Source: Dehalococcoidia bacterium (GTDB lineage: Bacteria; Chloroflexota; Dehalococcoidia; Bin125). From it: DNA of 64,000 nucleotides. Positions 55,674-64,000 of this stretch are shown here, in pieces. The DNA lies in NCBI GenBank assembly GCA_963663235.2, contig CAXXNO010000008.1, forward strand, positions 64,001 through 128,000, given 5' to 3'. Position 1 is the stretch's first letter. Every line of letters starts with the position of its first letter. The position numbers were made by a program, and so were the translations under genes. The notes under the pieces were generated by a model. It was not told the DNA's origin, did not search any database, and was given only the letters and a program-made list of their open reading frames with translations.

Positions 55674-56653
55674 CGACACGGAACGACGCCGTGCCCGCCG
55701 ACCTGACGCACCGTACCTACGATGTCAACGGCATCCAGATGCACGTGGCAGAACAGGGTGAGGGCCCCGCGGTGATCCTCTGCCACGGCTTCCCGGAGAT
55801 CTGGTACTCCTGGCGCCACCAACTCCCGGCCGTCGCGGACGCGGGTTTCCGCGCCATGGCCCCGGATATGCGTGGCTACGGCCGGACCACCGCCCCACCG
55901 GACTTGGAAGACTATCGCCAAGAGGTCATCTGCGCCGACCTCGTTGCGCTGCTGGATCGCCTGCGGCTGCCTGACGCCGTCTTCGTCGGGCACGATTGGG
56001 GCGGCGTGCTTGTCTGGAACATGGCGCTGCATCACCCTCAGCGTGTCCGGGCCGTGGCTGGGATCAACACCCCCCTCTTCCCGCCGATGCCCGCCAGCTT
56101 CCTGGAGACGATGCGGGAGAATCCGGGCACGTGGGATTACCAGTTTTACTTCCAGGAGCCCGGCATCGCCGAGACCGAGTTGGAACAAGATGTCGGGCGC
56201 ACGTGTCGCCTCATCCTCCGCTCCAGCGATCCAGCCGATGGCTTTGACGTCCTCGCCGGCTTCCACAACGTCCGCGCCCAGGGTGGGGTGCTGATCGGCT
56301 ATCCACAAGACGCGCCGCGCAGCGTCATGTTGAGCGAGGACGATCTGCAGTGCTACGTCGAGCAGTTCCAGAGGACGGGCTTCCGCGGTGGTCTGAACTG
56401 GTACCGCAATCATGATGCCAACTGGGCCTGGGATCAGTCGGTCAAGGAATATGCTGTGCCGCATCCGGCCCTGATGGTGACGGCCGGTCGCGACCCGGTG
56501 CTATCGCCCAAGCTCGCTCGCAAGATGGAGCAGTGGGTTCCCAACCTGACTCGGGGCCATATCGAGCGGTGCGGCCACTGGACTCAGCAGGAGGCGCCGG
56601 ACGAGCTGAACCGCATCTTGATTGAGTGGCTCGGGCGCCTACCGGCGCGGTAG
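55670..56653 (+). CDS. Epoxide hydrolase-type alpha/beta hydrolase
   Basis: HGFPE.WYSWRHQ, RGYG, GHDWGG, LNWYRN, GHWTQQE. Confidence 0.9.
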   Translation: MTTRNDAVPADLTHRTYDVNGIQMHVAEQGEGPAVILCHGFPEIWYSWRHQLPAVADAGFRAMAPDMRGYGRTTAPPDLEDYRQEVICADLVALLDRLRLPDAVFVGHDWGGVLVWNMALHHPQRVRAVAGINTPLFPPMPASFLETMRENPGTWDYQFYFQEPGIAETELEQDVGRTCRLILRSSDPADGFDVLAGFHNVRAQGGVLIGYPQDAPRSVMLSEDDLQCYVEQFQRTGFRGGLNWYRNHDANWAWDQSVKEYAVPHPALMVTAGRDPVLSPKLARKMEQWVPNLTRGHIERCGHWTQQEAPDELNRILIEWLGRLPAR

Positions 56654-57460
56654 TTGCTCGCGGGTCTCGTACGCCGCCGCGTCGGTGCCGTTCTCTGGCT
56701 CAAACACCGTGACCTGCCGACGAGCGAAGTCGATCTCGACGTCCACGAAGCTGATGTTGTCGCCCTCGTCCGTCTCCGCCAAGCGGTCTGAGGGATCCAC
56801 GACGATGACGAGCCGGTACAAGCCGTTGAATTCCGCGTGCCCCGCCATGTCATCGACGTCGATCCACTGCTCGCGGAGGACGTAGGGATACGTGTCGCCC
56901 CAGCCCACGGACAGCCCCTGAACATCCTGGTCACACGTGCGGTAGCCACCTTGCGAGGCGGCGCCCTGCTCCCGGTCGATTCGAACTGTGTCCCGGATGC
57001 AGAAGGTCGTCTTCGATATCCGCAGCGGCAGCGCGATGTCCACCGAGCGCGGCTCCAGAATGTAGCGGGCGTATTCGTTAAAGTGAAAATGGTTGTGGCT
57101 CGGGTGCCACGCGACGACACCGCCTCTCCCGGGGACTACGTGGCGCTTGCCCGCCGCCGTGTATGCGATCTGATCGACCAGTTGGATCTCTCCCGTCGGG
57201 CGGCTCGCCTGGACTTCCAGTGGGCCGTCACCATCGTTCCAGGTCGTGGTGGTGAGTCGCAGCACCTCGCGAGTCTCCCCGTTGACCAGGGCCGCGCCGA
57301 AATGGATATCGCTCGCGGGCAGGGCGCGGAGGTTGGGCAGTAGCCAGTCGGAAGCGAATTTCGACTGGGCCGCCGACTCGCCGGCGGCGCTCCACAGTGC
57401 CAGCAGCAGACCGACGACGGCGGACAGCGCCAGCAGCCGTCCGACGGTCGAGTGCCTCAT
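56639..57460 (-). CDS. Secreted lysyl oxidase family protein
   Basis: Signal peptide; WHPSHNHFH copper site; KTTFC and QGLSVGWGDTY (LTQ Lys/Tyr); QWIDV; E.DE.DN. Confidence 0.82.
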   Translation of the reverse strand: MRHSTVGRLLALSAVVGLLLALWSAAGESAAQSKFASDWLLPNLRALPASDIHFGAALVNGETREVLRLTTTTWNDGDGPLEVQASRPTGEIQLVDQIAYTAAGKRHVVPGRGGVVAWHPSHNHFHFNEYARYILEPRSVDIALPLRISKTTFCIRDTVRIDREQGAASQGGYRTCDQDVQGLSVGWGDTYPYVLREQWIDVDDMAGHAEFNGLYRLVIVVDPSDRLAETDEGDNISFVDVEIDFARRQVTVFEPENGTDAAAYETREQLPRR

Positions 57461-57638
57461 CGGTCGCTCCCGTTCTCCGTCGTCCGCGCCTCCCTTTGGC
57501 GGCGATCGGGAAAGCCAGCGTACCGCATGCTGCCGAGCGGAGACATCCGGTCGCTTCAGATCACGAGCTCTCGATTTGCTACATTCTGCGGCGACGGTGC
57601 GCGTCCACCCTATCGGCGCCGCCAAACGGAGCATCGCC

Positions 57639-58460
57639 GTGTCCAAATCTCCCAACGCCGTTCAGGACGCGATCAAAGGTGCGTGGACCCGTGGAGCCCA
57701 CGCGTACGACCACGATGCCGGCCACGGCCTTGCGACGCCAGCCGTCGAGCGCGCCTGGAGCGATGTGCTGGAAGACGCCCTGGACGCCGCCCCACTTGAT
57801 GTCCTGGACGTGGGAACGGGCACCGGCCTCCTGGCCGTCATCGCGGCGAAATTGGGACATCGCGTCACGGGCGTAGATTTCACCCCGGCCATGCTGGAAC
57901 GCGGCGCACACCGTGCGGAGCGCGCTGGCGTGCATGTTGCCTGGTGCGAGGGCGATGGGATGGACCTTCCCTTCCGCCCAGACTCCTTCGACGCGGTCGT
58001 CAGCCGTCACGTCCTGTGGACCCTCACGGATCCAGCCGCCGCTTTCCGTGAGTGGGTCCGTGTCACGCGGCCGGGTGGCCGGGTGGTCTGGTTCGACGGA
58101 CTCTACAGCGGCGGCTGGCAGACCAAGCTGCGGGGTGGGCTGGCGCGCACTCTCCGCTGGCTCCAGCGTCGCCCCGACCACGCCGGCTCCCACGGCTACC
58201 CGGACCATGCTATCGAAGCGCTGCCCCTGCGCGGGATCCGCTCCCCCGAGCCGGTGCGCGCCTTGCTGCACCATCTTGGCATCGACGATGCAACATTCGA
58301 GCACCTCACTGAGGTGCCGCGCGCGGAGCAGCACGGAGAACCGCTGCACAAGCGCGTCGCGGGCGTCGAGCGGCGATACATGGGCACGTTCCACGTCACG
58401 GCGGAACTCAAGCGGCGCTTTGGGCCGTCCTCGGAGCGCGCCGACAGCCCGTCCGACTAA
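57639..58460 (+). CDS. Class I SAM-dependent methyltransferase
   Basis: VLDVGTGTG, GVDF...ML, LPF...SFDAVVSRHVLWTL, RV.RPGG. Confidence 0.88.
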   Translation: MSKSPNAVQDAIKGAWTRGAHAYDHDAGHGLATPAVERAWSDVLEDALDAAPLDVLDVGTGTGLLAVIAAKLGHRVTGVDFTPAMLERGAHRAERAGVHVAWCEGDGMDLPFRPDSFDAVVSRHVLWTLTDPAAAFREWVRVTRPGGRVVWFDGLYSGGWQTKLRGGLARTLRWLQRRPDHAGSHGYPDHAIEALPLRGIRSPEPVRALLHHLGIDDATFEHLTEVPRAEQHGEPLHKRVAGVERRYMGTFHVTAELKRRFGPSSERADSPSD

Positions 58461-58547
58461 AGTCGGAGACCAAAGTCCGCGCTCCGACCGAGCACCAGTT
58501 GCGCCGTTCGGTCGATTAGAGCCGCGCGCCCGCGTGCTATCAAGGTG
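58452..58547 (+). promoter_or_regulatory. Conserved upstream block, copy 1, with tandem GAC-N4-GTC palindromes
   Basis: TCCGACT-AA-AGTCGGA then GACCAAAGTC, TTGCGCCGTTCG and TGCTATCAAGGTG; repeated at 60486-60582. Confidence 0.7.
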
Positions 58548-58715
58548 TGGGTGCGATACGCGGCACACGGCCCGCCCGAGTGGGACGAGCAGAGGAACAG
58601 ATGGCGATCGCGTTGACCCAATCGCCCGTTGCGGCACGAATCGAACCCGGGCTCAGTTGGATGCAGAGCGGTCGCGGGTCCTGCCCCGCCCTTCGTTGAT
58701 GATTGGTCGGAGACG

Positions 58716-60440
58716 GTGAAGGCAGAAGAACGCAACGTCGACGACCCCTCGATGACGAGGCGTCGCTTCCTGACGCGGGCAGGCAAGGCCGGCGTGGGCC
58801 TCGCATCGCTGGCGGCCGTTGGCCCGGCGATCGCCGCTGCCACGTCGAAGACCACGCAGGCGGCCCACTTGGATGAGCACGCTTGCCGCAATCTCACGGA
58901 CCTAGGGGAGATCATCGCCCGTGTGCCCGCCCCCGTGGGCAACGCCGGCAACCCAGACATCGAGGTCATCCGCGATGGCAACAAGCCCCCCGCCGGCAAC
59001 GCCGACCCTTGGGGCCAGTACGATACCTTCGACGGCGCCGACCGTGCCGCCGAGGACTGGATCGGCTACGCCTACCCCTCGGCCCACACCTTCCATCAGG
59101 TAGTCTTCCAGGAAGGGCTGCACTTCGACGACGGCGGCTGGTTCGAGTCGCTCACGGTGCAAGTCCGCCGGAGCGGGACCTGGGCGCCAGTGCGTGGTCT
59201 GTCCATCTCCCCGGCCTATCCCTTTGCCAACGATGGAGTCTCCTACGAGACCTACACGCTGACGTTCGATGAGATCGCCGGCGACGGCATCCGCATCTTC
59301 GGCGCCCCCGGCGGCGCCGCTGACTTCATCTCCGTGGGTGAGCTGGAGATCTTCGGCGACTGCGATGGCCTACCGTCCGGCGACTCCACGTCACCGGCAT
59401 CACAGGGATGCACGAACTTGACCCACGATGGAGAGATCATCGCCCGCGTGACTTCTCCCACCGGCGGCGGCAACCGCAACATCGAGGTGATCCGAGATAG
59501 CGACTTCCCGTCCGTCGGCAGCAGCGACTCCTCGCGCCAATACGACACCTTCGACGGCCGCAACAGCGCCGCCGAAGATTGGATCGGCTACGCGTACCCC
59601 TCGGAGCAGACCTTCAACCACGTCATCTTCCAGGAAGGGCTGCACTTCTGGAACGGCGGCTGGTTCGAGTCGCTCACGGTGCAGGTCCGCCAGGGCGGGA
59701 CCTGGGTGCCGGTGCGTGGCCTGTCCATCTCCCCGGCCTACCCCTTCGCCGACAACGGCGTCTCGTTTGAGACCTATAGTCTTGCGTTCAACGCAATCGC
59801 CGGCGACGGCATCCGCATCATCGGCGCTCCCGGCGGCAGCGCCGGCTTCATCTCCGTTGGGGAGCTGGAGGTCTTCTCGGGCGACTGCTGGCAGCCGAGC
59901 GACCACTCGCCCACTAACCATTCGCAGAGCAACCAATCGCGGAGGCTCATCCACGAACCCCTCGCCGTTCCATACCGCGTGGCTGGGCCGTTTGCCTCGG
60001 TCGTGTCCGGCCGGTTGCATCGCGGCGTCGACCTTCTCGTCGGGGAGAACAGCGGGCTGCTTGCGACACTGGCTGGCGCAGCGCGCGCTCACGTCTCACC
60101 GACGACGAGCGGCGGCGAATCCAAATGGCTGGAACTCGACGCGAAGATTCGTCGGATCATCAAGATCGGGGACAACGAGTTCGTTCGCACCGAACCCGTC
60201 GAGATTCGCTATTACCACCTCAACGACTGGGTCGGGGACTTCCCTCGCGACGTCGTGCAAGGGGAGGTGATCGGCCTCTCCGGGGCGGGCGGCCTTCTTG
60301 ATGTGCCCCATTGCCACTTCGAGGTGTGGACCCGCCGATTTGGACAGATGGTGCCAACGGACCCGTATACCCTCCATCCTGAATGGCCCCGCGGCGAACA
60401 CACGTATCTCACCGCTGATGGGCGTTCGTACGATGACTGA
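58716..60440 (+). CDS. Tat-exported protein: two discoidin/CBM32-like domains plus M23 peptidase domain
   Basis: TRRRFL signal; repeats at 58884-59363 and 59409-59888; HRGVD and PHCHFE zinc motifs. Confidence 0.8.
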   Translation: MKAEERNVDDPSMTRRRFLTRAGKAGVGLASLAAVGPAIAAATSKTTQAAHLDEHACRNLTDLGEIIARVPAPVGNAGNPDIEVIRDGNKPPAGNADPWGQYDTFDGADRAAEDWIGYAYPSAHTFHQVVFQEGLHFDDGGWFESLTVQVRRSGTWAPVRGLSISPAYPFANDGVSYETYTLTFDEIAGDGIRIFGAPGGAADFISVGELEIFGDCDGLPSGDSTSPASQGCTNLTHDGEIIARVTSPTGGGNRNIEVIRDSDFPSVGSSDSSRQYDTFDGRNSAAEDWIGYAYPSEQTFNHVIFQEGLHFWNGGWFESLTVQVRQGGTWVPVRGLSISPAYPFADNGVSFETYSLAFNAIAGDGIRIIGAPGGSAGFISVGELEVFSGDCWQPSDHSPTNHSQSNQSRRLIHEPLAVPYRVAGPFASVVSGRLHRGVDLLVGENSGLLATLAGAARAHVSPTTSGGESKWLELDAKIRRIIKIGDNEFVRTEPVEIRYYHLNDWVGDFPRDVVQGEVIGLSGAGGLLDVPHCHFEVWTRRFGQMVPTDPYTLHPEWPRGEHTYLTADGRSYDD

Positions 60441-61935
60441 TGCGGTTGTTGATCTCCTCGACCTGCACCGCCGCGCTGCGGGCCATTCGACCAAAGTCGG
60501 AGACCAGAGTCCGTGCTTTGACCGACCCCCCAATTGCGCCGTTCGATGGATGGGAACGCTTGGCCCGCCTGCTATCAAGGTGAGCACGGGCTCACGCCTG
60601 GCGGCCCACGCCGCCGGTTGACGAAGACAGGCAGGTGGAGTCAGTCATTCTCAGCTTCAACTGCCGGTCTGAGACCCGAATCCGAGTGGGCCTTGCGGCG
60701 GCGCGCTCCGATGCTACGGTTTGTGTTCGTTCGATGATCGGAGGGCGACGGTGAAGGACGAGAAGCGCAGCGACCGCGGAGTCTCGCTGACGAGACGTCG
60801 ATTCCTGAAGCGCACGGGCAAGGCCACCGTAGGCCTCGCCTCGCTGATGGCCGTCGGCCCAGCGATCGTTGCCTCCACATCCAAGTCCGTCCATGCGGGT
60901 CATGCTGATGGGCATGCGTGTCTTAATCTCACGGACCTGGGGGAGATCGTCGCCCGCGTGCGTGTGCCCGTGGGCAGCGCCGGCAACCGCGACATCGAGA
61001 TCATCCGCGACGGGGACAAGCCGCCCACTGGCACTGCTGATCCCCTGCGCCAGTACGACACCTTCGACGGCATCGATATATCTGCTGAGGATTGGATCGG
61101 CTACGCCTACCCCTCGACGCACACCTTCCATCAGGTGGTGTTCCAAGAGGGGATGCACTTCTGGGACGGTGGCTGGTTCGAATCGCTCACGGTACAGGTC
61201 CGCCAGGGTCGGACGTGGGTGCCGGTCACGGGACTTTCGATCTTGCCGGACTACCCTTTCGCCGACAACGGCGTTTCGTATGAGAGCTATACCCTGACGT
61301 TCGATGAGGTCACCGGCGACGGCATCCGCCTCGTCGGTGCCCCCGGCGGCTTCTCGGACTTCATCTCTGTCGCCGAGCTTGAGATCTTCGGCGACTGCGA
61401 GCGGGACTCGCGCAATGACCCGTCGCAGCACTCGCCGGCGGTCGTCCCGGAGGAATGCACTAACTGGACCCAGGACGGGCAGATCATCGCTCGCGTGACC
61501 TCGCCGACCGGCGGAGGCAACCACGACATCGAGGTGATTCGGGACGGCAACCTGCCGCCCGTCGGCAGCGGAGACTCCTCGCGCCAGTACGACACGCACG
61601 ATGGCGCGAACAGCGCCGACAATGACTGGATCGGATACGAGTACTCGTCGGATCGGACGTTTGACCACATCGTCTTCCAGGAGGGAAGGCAGTTCTGGAA
61701 CGGCGGTTGGTTCGAAACGCTCACCGTGCAGGTTCGCCAAGGTGGGAGTTGGCAGTCCGTGAGCGGGCTCTCGATCTCGCCGGACTACCCGTTCGCCGAC
61801 AACGACGTCTCCTTCGAGATCTACACGCTCATCTTCGACGAGATCACCGGCGACGCGATCCGTATCTTTGGTGCTCCAGGCGGGAGCCACGATTTCATCT
61901 CCGTGGCTGAGTTGGCGGTCTACTGGGGCAATTGC
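58884..61935 (+). repeat. Four 480-nt coding repeats (160-aa Cys-to-Cys domain)
   Basis: Copies at 58884-59363, 59409-59888, 60919-61398, 61456-61935; shared QYDT.DG, DWIGY.Y, FQEG, GGWFE.LTVQVR, GAPGG...FISV.EL. Confidence 0.92.
60486..60582 (+). promoter_or_regulatory. Conserved upstream block, copy 2
   Basis: TTCGACCAAAGTCGGAGACCAGAGTC...TTGCGCCGTTCG...TGCTATCAAGGTG. Confidence 0.7.
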
Positions 61936-62076
61936 TGGGAGCACAGCTACAACTCGAACCATAACTCTTCCAACAACAGCAACTCACAGAGCAACCACTC
62001 GAACAGCAGCAGCTCGAACAGCAGCAGCTCGAACAGCCACTCGAAGAGCAAGAGCTCGCGGAGCAGTCGGTCATGA
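60751..62076 (+). CDS. Tat-exported paralogue: two discoidin-like domains plus Ser/Asn-rich tail (frame continues to TAG 62194-62196)
   Basis: GGAGG SD, TRRRFLK signal, two 160-aa repeats, 45-aa tail with 24 Ser. Confidence 0.82.
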   Translation: MKDEKRSDRGVSLTRRRFLKRTGKATVGLASLMAVGPAIVASTSKSVHAGHADGHACLNLTDLGEIVARVRVPVGSAGNRDIEIIRDGDKPPTGTADPLRQYDTFDGIDISAEDWIGYAYPSTHTFHQVVFQEGMHFWDGGWFESLTVQVRQGRTWVPVTGLSILPDYPFADNGVSYESYTLTFDEVTGDGIRLVGAPGGFSDFISVAELEIFGDCERDSRNDPSQHSPAVVPEECTNWTQDGQIIARVTSPTGGGNHDIEVIRDGNLPPVGSGDSSRQYDTHDGANSADNDWIGYEYSSDRTFDHIVFQEGRQFWNGGWFETLTVQVRQGGSWQSVSGLSISPDYPFADNDVSFEIYTLIFDEITGDAIRIFGAPGGSHDFISVAELAVYWGNCWEHSYNSNHNSSNNSNSQSNHSNSSSSNSSSSNSHSKSKSSRSSRS

Positions 62077-62166
62077 AGCCGGAGTTCACGAAGTAGGAGC
62101 CGGTCGCGCACCCGCCATTCGCGGAGCAGCCGGTCGCACAGCCGGAGCTCACGAAGTAGGAGCCGG
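62056..62166 (+). repeat. 63-nt-period duplication encoding Ser/Arg repeats across the TGA
   Basis: 62056-62103 vs 62119-62166 differ only at three synonymous Ser codons and TGA/CAC. Confidence 0.85.
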
Positions 62167-62211
62167 GGCCGGAGCGGCCGCCACTCGAGGTCGTAGCGCC
62201 GAAACGCTGTA

Positions 62212-63480
62212 ATGTCAGGTAAGCTTCCTTCTGTACCGGTCGGCCGAGCCCCTGGCTCGGCCGGTTCCGCGTCCGTGTTGGATCAGGACCGATCGAAGGC
62301 CGCCTCGTGGGCCGAAGAGCGGCCCACGGACGGAGCGACGGTGGTACGGCTGTTCCGAAATTCCGATGTGACGTTACGGGCGATGGCTGATGGGTCGGCG
62401 ATAGCGATCGACGAAGCCCAGCGCGAGGCCCATGCGTTCAACCCGGAGGCGGTCGCCATATGGAACGCACGCTCATCGTGGACCGAAGATGAGCTGGAGG
62501 CGTGGCTGCGAGAGAACGGCCTGCCTGCCCCCGCAGCCCGCGAGCTGGCGCACCGGTTTCTGGGGCAGTTACGCGCTGCCGGGCTGTTCCACGAAGCCGA
62601 AGCCCCTCCGGCTGTCGCTTCGCAGGCAGGCCACGCGGCAGCCAATGTCTCCCATTACCGCATGTGGAAGACCGACATGCGGGTGCGCATTCCCGACGCC
62701 GAGATCGAACAGTACATCCATCGGTTGTGTCATCAGTTCGCCTCGCAGCCGTCCGAGAACGCTGTGGAGTTCGAAATTCGTCCTGGCCGCGACGGTCGGT
62801 GGAAGATCGTGCGAGACGGCGAAGTTGTCGAGGAGCGCGGTTCGGCTATCACTGCGGCTCGCGAGCTCGAGTGGTACATGGTGGAGACGGCGACCCACGC
62901 GGAGCGCTATTTCGCGCACTTTCACGCATCCGCGCTGACCAGGAACGGCCGGACGCTGCTGATTCCCGGAAAGTCCGGGTCCGGCAAGTCCACGCTCTGC
63001 CTGGTGCTCTGCACGCACGGCTTCGAGCTGCTTGGCGATGATGTCATCTTCATGGACCCTGTCTCCGGCGCCATCCACCCATTTCAGCGCGCGTTGCACG
63101 TCCACGATGATGCCATCCCCCTCTTGCAGGATGCCGGATTCCCATATGACCCCGCGCTCCACCTTCCCAATTTCTTGGAGGTGGACGCGCTGGCAGCCTG
63201 GCGCACCAGCCCAAGCCCGCCCCTTTCACACATCCTGTTCGTGGACTGGGACGAAGAAGGCCCGGTCGAGGTCGCGCCGATCACGCAGGCCGAGGCAGCG
63301 GTGGCGATCCGTCCCTTCTCCCACAATCTGAAGCGGCGACTGGACGGCGGCTGGCCGACTTTGCAGCGCATCGTGGACCATACCCAATGCGCCCGCCTGC
63401 TGCGCGGTCAAGACTTGCTGAGCGCGGCTGAGGCGATCCGCGATCTGATCGACAGCGAACCGCCGGCTTCAGACCGCTGA
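62212..63480 (+). CDS. PqqD/RRE domain fused to HPr-kinase-like P-loop kinase (alternative start GTG 62341)
   Basis: AHAFNPEAVAIW...FLGQLRAAGL (PqqD pattern); HASA, GKSGSGKST, LLGDD kinase motifs. Confidence 0.82.
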   Translation: MSGKLPSVPVGRAPGSAGSASVLDQDRSKAASWAEERPTDGATVVRLFRNSDVTLRAMADGSAIAIDEAQREAHAFNPEAVAIWNARSSWTEDELEAWLRENGLPAPAARELAHRFLGQLRAAGLFHEAEAPPAVASQAGHAAANVSHYRMWKTDMRVRIPDAEIEQYIHRLCHQFASQPSENAVEFEIRPGRDGRWKIVRDGEVVEERGSAITAARELEWYMVETATHAERYFAHFHASALTRNGRTLLIPGKSGSGKSTLCLVLCTHGFELLGDDVIFMDPVSGAIHPFQRALHVHDDAIPLLQDAGFPYDPALHLPNFLEVDALAAWRTSPSPPLSHILFVDWDEEGPVEVAPITQAEAAVAIRPFSHNLKRRLDGGWPTLQRIVDHTQCARLLRGQDLLSAAEAIRDLIDSEPPASDR

Positions 63481-64000
63481 CACGGGCTGGTTCGTCGCCG
63501 GGTTCATCTCGAACGGGCTGGGAAGATCCAGCTCCTCGGCGATCTCGCGCACGGCGGGCAGCACCTCGTCGCCCATGAGGCGCAGGCTGCGCATCGTGTC
63601 GTCGTGGGTCATCGCGCCGTCGCCATCCCAGAAGATGATGCTGCCCGGCCGCAAGTACTCCAGGACGTAGCGGAGCTGGGCGATCACCGTTGGCGGTGTC
63701 CCCGCGATAATCGTGTGCTTCTCAATCTGGTCCTCATAGGTGCCCGCAAAGTCTTGATCCGGCTTGACCTGCCCCGGTTGGAGGGCTGGACGGGTCGGCT
63801 TCTTCCGGCCACGGGAGAACGCAGCCCCCCACGTCTTGATCGTTGGCAGAACCTCCGTGCGCGAAGTCATGCCCGGAAGGTTCTGTAGGAAGCCGCGAAC
63901 CTGCCCCTGGTTTCCTTCCAGGAACGGGTTGCTGGGCCCCTTCAGGAACTTGCGCGCCGTCGCCTCGGCAAGCTCTTCGGTCTCGTCCACGTGCACCTTG
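63469..64000 (-). CDS. LLM-class oxidoreductase, 5'-partial
   Basis: IAGTP.TV..QL, MTHDDTMRSLRLMGDEVLPAVR typical of LLM C-terminus. Confidence 0.78.
   Translation of the reverse strand, partial: KVHVDETEELAEATARKFLKGPSNPFLEGNQGQVRGFLQNLPGMTSRTEVLPTIKTWGAAFSRGRKKPTRPALQPGQVKPDQDFAGTYEDQIEKHTIIAGTPPTVIAQLRYVLEYLRPGSIIFWDGDGAMTHDDTMRSLRLMGDEVLPAVREIAEELDLPSPFEMNPATNQPVSAV

Follow-up and report, generated by a model that had tools for sequence, protein, structure and literature searches.

A fused RRE-HprK-like kinase encoded beside two Tat-signal discoidin-like proteins: a candidate leader-guided kinase for exported proteins in a Dehalococcoidia bacterium

What does a kinase with a built-in, putatively leader-binding domain do next to two full-size proteins that carry twin-arginine translocation (Tat) signals? 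The question is raised by a 64,000-nt stretch of a Dehalococcoidia bacterium genome (contig CAXXNO010000008.1, positions 64,001 to 128,000), hereafter the window. Its last 5.3 kb consist of three co-oriented genes: the open reading frames (ORFs) A and B, and a gene whose product joins a recognition element for peptides made on ribosomes and modified after translation (RiPP recognition element, RRE) to an HprK-like kinase. A preliminary description of the sequence had picked out two co-oriented Tat paralogues, the second with a Ser-rich tail, followed by such a fusion, and all of these are present once their borders are corrected. We judge the chances to be about even that the product of the last gene is a Ser kinase guided by a leader, like those of lasso peptides and of linear polyphosphorylated peptides (LPPs), with its RRE fused to it, and that its partner is ORF B and possibly also ORF A. 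The kinase gene is made up as follows:

62341..63480, + strand: RRE-HprK-like kinase fusion, 379 aa, defined by its start, its structural model and its folds
62341..62598, + strand: RRE (PqqD-like winged-helix) domain, residues 1-86, from structural matches
62641..63477, + strand: kinase body, with an N-subdomain (residues 101-189) and a P-loop HprK-like domain (residues 190-379)

An alternative start at ATG 62212 would give a protein of 422 aa; we placed the start at GTG 62341 because homologue alignments begin at residues 43-49 of the long form and because a GGAG sequence sits 6 nt upstream. The AlphaFold 2 (AF2) model of the fusion had a predicted local distance difference test (pLDDT) score of 93.7 and a predicted template modelling (pTM) score of 0.76. 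Compared via this model, residues 1-86 matched the leader-bound lasso B1 RREs (5v1u, TbiB1, Z 11.5, root-mean-square deviation (rmsd) 2.1 over 82 aligned residues; 6jx3, Z 11.0) as well as PqqD (5sxy, Z 8.7), and residues 190-379 matched HprK/P (1ko7, Z 12.8, rmsd 2.8, 134 aligned; 1knx, Z 12.4; another structure, Z 12.3). The whole kinase body matched phosphoenolpyruvate carboxykinase (PEPCK; 1ii2) with Z 16.9, and Foldseek also linked it to PEPCK (E 3e-8). A PDB sequence search with the kinase returned P-loop-level matches only. The protein carries a Walker A motif, GKSGSGKST, at residue 210 and an Asp-Asp motif, LLGDDV, at residue 230; four residues, H195, G215, K216 and G227, do not vary across 78 sequences and two more, T218 and D233, hardly do, and PF05402 was matched by 14 of the 78 aligned homologues. 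According to the model, the N-terminal domain is of the RRE/PqqD fold and is joined to an HprK-like kinase, which bears out both halves of the preliminary assignment (a PqqD-like N-terminus and an HPr-kinase-like domain).

The fusion also aligned with genes of a relative. Its kinase part was 33% identical to the kinase of locus L118 (E 1e-43) and its N-terminal part aligned with the separate PqqD gene of the same locus (33% identity over 61 residues, E 2e-7), so that, judged from these alignments, the fusion equals two adjacent genes in L118. An hhalign comparison of the kinase profile with a Winogradskyella protein aligned the kinase part only. The fusion gene is present in a single copy in its genome; a search of 36 family members gave no match, and a class sample gave matches in 5 of 400 other genomes, all of them weak.

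The context of more distant homologues in other genomes shows a clear pattern. When 401 genomes of the phylum were searched with a profile, 80 contained homologues. Of the 29 loci taken from these, the 27 that combined a kinase ORF with 500 nt or more of upstream sequence were counted. A Tat-like ORF lay just upstream of the kinase and on the same strand in 24 of the 27, compared with 2 of 27 when antisense ORFs of the same stretch were scored and 2 of 26 for downstream ORFs. Among the 24, L143 is an apparent false match and L126 repeats L102; the three loci that missed include L121, whose genome is flagged as unpublished. A separate PqqD ORF just ahead of the kinase was found in 17 of 28 loci, usually between the Tat-signal gene and the kinase.

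The partner proteins extend 58-300 residues past the RR motif; they represent some ten types with no relation to one another. Six of the 17 partners that were scanned passed the TIGR01409 cut-off, and none of the 17 matched any other family. The leaders of 15 of 24 contained [YW]xxPx[LIVMFA], which PMC13381572 gives as the motif bound by lasso and LPP RREs. Past the leader, 8 of 24 partners had a Ser+Thr fraction of at least 0.30, including poly-Ser proteins (L127, L133) and an SP-repeat protein (L124). The preliminary description had looked to the neighbourhoods of kinase homologues for Ser-tailed Tat proteins: the Tat-signal gene recurs and a third of the partners are Ser/Thr-rich, but of 23 partner C-termini a single one is Ser; ten are Cys. 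The Cys-ending partners (L122, L124, L130, L134, L137, L141, L142, L144, L145 and L146) belong to three protein families, and their ends are reminiscent of the C-terminal Ser required by lasso kinases. In L127 (793-1236) and L133 (739-1251) the leader has R-G in place of R-R and the protein has poly-Ser, a motif resembling LPxTG, a stretch of hydrophobic residues and a C-terminus that is basic; these two look like Ser-rich wall-anchored proteins encoded beside PqqD and the kinase.

The same arrangement was seen in about 40 Flavobacteriaceae loci and in three further lineages. In collection scans, 44 of 74 loci with enough upstream DNA passed a fixed criterion, 41 of them of the Flavobacteriaceae type and the others being L054, L058 and L102. 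In the Flavobacteriaceae cassette (about 40 loci), a conserved 53-64-aa peptide with a Tat-like leader and a short Ser/Pro-rich end is followed by a 373-380-aa HprK-like homologue and then by an NTP_transf_5 gene. These peptides (L011, L012, L079 and about 40 more loci) end in ...SSSPPDPGGNPFD-like sequence, and in the three loci inspected the cassette sits just after two large proteins sorted by the type IX secretion system (T9SS). L054 and L058 have a 120-residue Tat-like partner with a Ser/Gly-rich stretch, and L102 a partner of about 190 residues. Two loci from the window's own class, L098 and L099, show the order peptide, separate PqqD, kinase, and missed the fixed criterion by one residue; the gene after their kinase is convergent, which makes them cassettes with a kinase and no nucleotidyltransferase. 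The clade of the window kinase fell, in a quick tree, in a 27-row group (support 90) together with L098/L099, L054/L058 and L102, and the 27 rows across the midpoint root, including Sphingomonas, Anaerolineae and Chthonomonadales, were without a Tat-like partner; for most Flavobacteriaceae rows the partner status was taken from the collection locus scan and not from the tree labels. We place the kinase in a large, uncharacterised branch whose members are partnered with directly upstream genes for Tat-signal proteins or peptides.

The two genes upstream of the window kinase are composed as follows:

58716..60440, + strand: ORF A (574 aa), with a Tat signal at residues 13-49, a pair of discoidin-like domains at residues 57-216 and 232-391, a Ser/Asn-rich linker and an M23-like peptidase end
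60751..62076, + strand: ORF B, 441 aa, the candidate substrate protein
60751..60897, + strand: Tat-type signal of ORF B, residues 1-49, from a TIGR01409 match and its motif
60919..61398, + strand: discoidin-like domain 1 of ORF B, from Pfam matches of homologues and sequence
61456..61935, + strand: discoidin-like domain 2 of ORF B, from the same two sources
61939..62073, + strand: Ser/Asn-rich tail of ORF B, residues 397-441, ending ...SSRSSRS, of population-variable length

The best starts were GTG 58716 for ORF A, with GGAG in front, and GTG 60751 for ORF B, with GGAGG in front and a TGA stop at 62074-62076. The called proteins P0162 and P0160 of other assemblies begin at the starts chosen for ORF A and ORF B, respectively, and P0160 is 98% identical to ORF B and shares its start and end residues. 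Position 58452, which had been proposed as the start of the first gene, falls in upstream non-coding DNA. ORF A and ORF B are paralogues of 70-71% identity. Both leaders contain T-R-R-R-F-L, a mildly hydrophobic stretch with a Pro, and a Lys ahead of an A-x-A site. With TIGR01409, residues 1-60 of ORF B scored 18.1 bits, above the 16.7 cut-off; the N-terminus of ORF A scored 13.5 bits, under that cut-off, although the TRRRFL motif is present there nonetheless. A Ser/Thr cluster, S-T-S-K-S, stands just past the ORF B signal, at the predicted cleavage region.

Each of the two proteins has two 160-residue Cys...GDC domains. ORF B itself had no Pfam match at E<=0.01 and a PDB sequence search with it gave no match. 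When ORF B was scanned together with 47 homologues, 23 of these 48 sequences matched PF00754 (F5/8 type C; best E 4.7e-19) and 15 matched PF22633, a NedA-like galactose-binding model, because of which we consider the label 'lectin-like' fair for the domains of both ORFs. The C-terminus of ORF A scored 19.7 bits with PF01551 (M23), below the 28.7 cut-off; metal-ligand motifs could be read from its sequence, HxxxD (HRGVD, residues 435-439) and HxH (HCHFEV, residues 532-537), and the protein ends ...SYDD, with no Ser tail.

By a loose pattern, 26 of 2945 coding-like ORFs of this genome (0.9%) have Tat-like N-termini, yet both genes upstream of the kinase do, as the other lineages predict; for this reason we regard ORF B, and perhaps ORF A, as the candidate substrate, which the kinase would most likely recognise through its signal peptide. 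The comparison across genomes suggests that RiPP logic can work with a Tat-type leader, and the earlier idea that the RRE reads the Tat leader seems reasonable in view of the recurring gene order. Of the outcomes named beforehand as speaking against the idea, two were checked, the fold of the N-terminal domain and the neighbours of kinase homologues, and neither refuted it. The folds, the fusion, the Tat signals and a gene order that recurs in other lineages are observed; that the leader is bound, that a phosphate is added and at which residue, and that the protein is exported once modified is what we infer, in four steps. The RRE domain would dock on the signal peptide in the cytoplasm, at the h/c region around the conserved Pro; the kinase domain would then phosphorylate a Ser (or Thr) in a nearby disordered stretch; the Tat pathway would export the modified, folded discoidin-domain protein; and signal peptidase would remove the leader. 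We tentatively extend this, with rather less confidence, to a widespread and so far undescribed route to secreted phosphoproteins, in which an RRE would read a Tat signal as a leader, a dedicated HprK-like kinase would phosphorylate the protein in the cytoplasm and Tat, a pathway for folded and modified cargo, would export it. In this bacterium the exported proteins would be full-size and carbohydrate-binding, one of them a cell-wall peptidase.

The proposed chemistry is plausible because lasso kinases and LppK offer published precedent. The lasso kinases PadeK (paeninodin), ThcoK and SyanK phosphorylate the C-terminal Ser of a leader-bearing linear precursor, several phosphates being possible (PMC8498205). 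The LPP clusters of Bacillota comprise a precursor (LppA), an RRE (LppB), an HprK-like kinase (LppK), an SpI-type leader peptidase (LppS), an NTP transferase (LppN) and an exporter (LppD); LppK polyphosphorylates Ser3 of linear precursors of 35-200 aa and a signal-peptidase-type enzyme removes the leader (Popov et al., Nat Commun 2026, PMC13381572). Our locus resembles these clusters in combining an RRE and an HprK-like kinase with a candidate linear ribosomal precursor and no adjacent lasso cyclase, and we liken to it their long precursors, their signal-peptidase-type leader removal and their phosphate on a Ser near the leader. It differs from them in several respects. The RRE is fused to the kinase instead of being a separate LppB; the neighbourhood encodes neither an SpI-like peptidase nor an NTP transferase nor an exporter resembling MsbA; the leader is a twin-arginine signal, unlike the LPP leader YxxPxVLxHQxIxFETxxS (PMC13381572); its candidate substrates, at 441 and 574 aa, are proteins with folded domains; and the host lies outside Bacillota. 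With the lasso kinases, which act on a Ser of a leader-bearing linear precursor, the fusion shares the HprK-like fold; the lasso systems use a separate B1 RRE and small Ser-ending peptides.

Accessory enzymes of either kind were sought around the locus and in the genome, which is 92% complete. The genome had no match to PF13471 (the lasso B2 peptidase) or PF14907 (NTP_transf_5) and no second PF05402. The claim that no lasso cyclase, peptidase, radical SAM or nucleotidyltransferase gene is adjacent holds for the neighbouring genes, among which no asparagine-synthase-like cyclase was seen, and for the two Pfam families genome-wide, cyclase and radical SAM genes not having been searched for across the genome.

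A number of observations weigh against the proposed reading. The neighbourhood counts leave out the closest kinase homologues (P0002-P0016, 49-62% identical), which are metagenome proteins: a single-protein scan of genome contigs for them found none, and profile scans returned distant relatives and one 1.8-kb fragment (L052) covering the 3' side only. Because related genomes are not independent, there are fewer independent cases than the locus counts imply. The nearest NCBIfam models for the two halves, TIGR04352 (HprK-related kinase A) and TIGR04353 (PqqD-family peptide chaperone), which form the HPr-rel-A system and whose names are silent on the substrate, score far below their curated cut-offs (78.3 bits against 200, E 5e-22, and 14.8 bits against 35, respectively). 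The leaders of ORF A and ORF B read ...LASL(M/A)AVGPAI..., with A-V-G-P-A-I instead of [YW]xxP. ORF A and ORF B exceed in size any partner found elsewhere, and in ORF A a Ser/Asn-rich linker similar to the ORF B tail precedes M23; the tail, whose length varies freely, may be just a stretched linker. Two further points concern the space between ORF B and the kinase gene, and the variation of the latter among natural populations.

62235..62266, + strand: GC-rich hairpin in the interval that separates ORF B and the kinase gene, -31.1 kcal/mol, no U tract

This strong hairpin (z -3.8; 0 of 200 shuffles folded as well) and a gap of 264 nt separate ORF B from the kinase gene, and their co-transcription is therefore only putative. 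The fold of the whole gap was no better than that of shuffles (z -0.77). The hairpin is a possible terminator or attenuator; attenuators are common after precursor genes. A promoter scan of the locus gave 0 sites, and a terminator scan gave two sites only, both inside ORFs and at chance level. We also considered a hidden small precursor gene in the gap and rejected it, as no frame combines a start codon with a Tat-like or leader-like motif.

The stretch was found in 20 sequencing runs from 9 studies, none of them an RNA run. Contigs from 3 runs (3 studies) span the region from the ORF B tail through the kinase, and a fourth run joins it by overlapping contigs. In these four runs the kinase gene had no frameshifts or stops and its motifs were intact. 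All 7 single-nucleotide polymorphisms (SNPs) in the gene fell at codon positions 1 or 2, a pattern that hardly suggests strong purifying selection between strains as close as these.

Several of these points would also fit a kinase that is an orphan, the cassette having lost its own Tat-leader peptide gene, so that the enzyme is decaying or acts on a substrate encoded elsewhere and ORF A and ORF B are unrelated to it. The hairpin and gap, the SNP positions, the size of the two proteins and their lack of the [YW]xxP found in 15 of 24 partners all favour such a view, and so does the fact that neither the neighbourhood nor the genome supplies a partner nucleotidyltransferase, a peptidase or an exporter. 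We nevertheless consider it rather unlikely. Both upstream genes are Tat-like, against a background of about 0.9% of ORFs; the kinase gene is intact, with all its motifs, in the window and in the contigs of all 4 runs; the gap is free of small ORFs that have both a start codon and a Tat-like motif; and kinase-only cassettes without a nucleotidyltransferase are known from L098 and L099.

If the kinase does act on ORF B, where would the phosphate be placed? One option is the conserved terminal Ser or the Ser-rich tail, as in lasso kinases, and the other is the S-T-S-K-S cluster just past the signal, as at Ser3 of the LPP core. The tail consists of 45 residues, 53% Ser and 22% Asn, and is composed of 15-nt repeat units; ORF B is the sole credible gene of the genome with such a Ser-rich C-terminal end. 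A second repeat lies across its stop codon:

62056..62179, + strand: 63-nt tandem repeat, two copies (62056-62116 and 62119-62179) spanning the ORF B stop

The two copies are 80% identical. Past the TGA the reading frame stays open for 39 RS-rich codons, up to TAG 62194-62196, because the tandem repeat spans the stop. The remark that both possible C-termini end in SRS is correct, the frame after the TGA being a by-product of the repeat. We take the TGA to be the true ORF B stop, and the short form to be real, because P0160 has an identical ...SSRSSRS end and 4 runs (4 studies) are unchanged there. Read-through of the TGA or its use for selenocysteine was ruled out on the same grounds, together with the origin of the frame in the tandem copy and its poor codon use (0.13). 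Synonymous codon use in the tail favours the ORF B frame (0.51) over the antisense frame (-0.35). A Cys/Ser/Gly-rich antisense ORF (61895-62152, - strand) was judged non-coding: its codon use is good only over 62077-62196 (0.69), it has no ribosome binding site, it overlaps the end of a conserved domain and it crosses the tail where the ORF B frame is favoured.

The tail differs among populations. That of P0160 is 15 aa (+45 nt) longer than in the window, two sequencing runs had in-frame tail insertions of +15 nt and +30 nt, and one run had a single 63-nt copy (joint 62085>62149), that is, -63 nt after the stop. Although the repeat length changes further up, the window, P0160 and 4 runs all have Ser as the C-terminal residue. 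Across 61939-62179, populations thus differ by whole repeat units, a behaviour of the contingency type.

The preliminary description had gone further and proposed that the Ser/RS tail at the C-terminus is the phosphorylated site, giving a secreted glycan-binding phosphoprotein, possibly for the binding of mineral, metal or matrix; the tail would perhaps take up many phosphates. The lasso kinases' need for a C-terminal Ser (PMC8498205), the Ser end of ORF B that is kept throughout, the poly-Ser partners L127 and L133, and the nucleophilic C-terminal residue of 11 of 23 partners (10 Cys, 1 Ser), albeit in few families only, speak for this site. Against it, ORF A has nearly the same leader and no tail, the Flavobacteriaceae peptides and those of L098/L099 lack a Ser end, and the stretched linker between the ORF A domains is similar to the tail, which perhaps began as a linker that remained after loss of a peptidase domain. 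Most of the small partners have Ser right past the leader and a non-Ser end, which, like the tail-less ORF A, argues for the leader-proximal site. The tail as phosphorylation site is not supported by the comparison, and we regard it as unlikely; a mineral, metal or matrix role likewise found no support.

Signal-binding chaperones for Tat substrates are well established: TorD and DmsD are cytoplasmic proofreading chaperones that read the Tat signal of a specific, adjacently encoded substrate before export, and they differ from the fusion in their fold, in having no enzyme domain and in serving cofactor insertion rather than covalent modification. That the fusion likewise acts on export, its RRE holding the Tat signal as a chaperone would and its P-loop domain gating release through ATP or transient phosphorylation of the signal, would agree with the signal, and not any mature domain, being the partner feature conserved across families, but it is highly improbable, considering that the kinase motifs are fully kept, that the characterised relatives are true Ser kinases and that many cassettes include a nucleotidyltransferase, which needs a phosphorylated product.

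Leader-guided phosphorylation of ORF B, and perhaps ORF A, is the reading that we retain. The surroundings of the three genes complete the description of the locus:

58454..58547, + strand: conserved non-coding block upstream of ORF A, with 79% identity to the ORF B block across 95 nt
60488..60582, + strand: conserved non-coding block upstream of ORF B, a copy of that of ORF A

These blocks of about 95 nt lie some 170-260 nt ahead of the start codons and are the only two copies in the genome. An Rfam scan of 56000-64000, the blocks included, gave no match; they may be a shared regulatory element or a 5' leader retained since the duplication. The neighbours that were scanned are a methyltransferase, a lysyl-oxidase-like gene and an LLM-type monooxygenase, the last of which follows the kinase and is convergent with it. 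The lysyl-oxidase-like protein (56639-57655, - strand), encoded upstream of the locus, is secreted and matched PF01186 above its cut-off (E 6e-12); to our knowledge, bacterial lysyl oxidase homologues are uncommon. The discoidin domain family has about 17 copies in this genome, fused to PKD, glycoside-hydrolase-like and sugar-dehydrogenase-like parts, and was not found in the 40 related genomes searched. Frameshift-split discoidin genes occur beside Pro-rich linkers (C4:438889-440324, C6:138789-141343 and C4:910655-912923) and are either assembly errors at homopolymer runs or pseudogenes.

RRE-guided HprK-like kinases are known only for small peptides, that is, for lasso peptides and, since 2026, for LPPs. 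A literature search, with subscription journals and supplements outside its scope, found no paper joining Tat-type leaders with RRE/HprK-like kinases. To this background the locus adds a fused RRE-kinase, the absence of accessory enzymes and full-size discoidin proteins, one of them a peptidase, as candidate substrates. It is also a compact test case, with two genes (ORF B and the fusion kinase), no accessory enzymes, and a tail and a leader-proximal Ser cluster that can both be mapped. If the proposed reading is true, RiPP-kinase logic extends to Tat-signal proteins and the export signal doubles as a recognition leader, which would be a new kind of signal-peptide reader in Tat biology, and the orphan 'HPr-rel-A'-like kinases would gain a class of substrates. 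For the bacterium, the phosphate could adjust the places to which the ORF A and ORF B proteins attach or the timing of their activity, and bacteria more generally could secrete phosphoproteins without an extracellular kinase.

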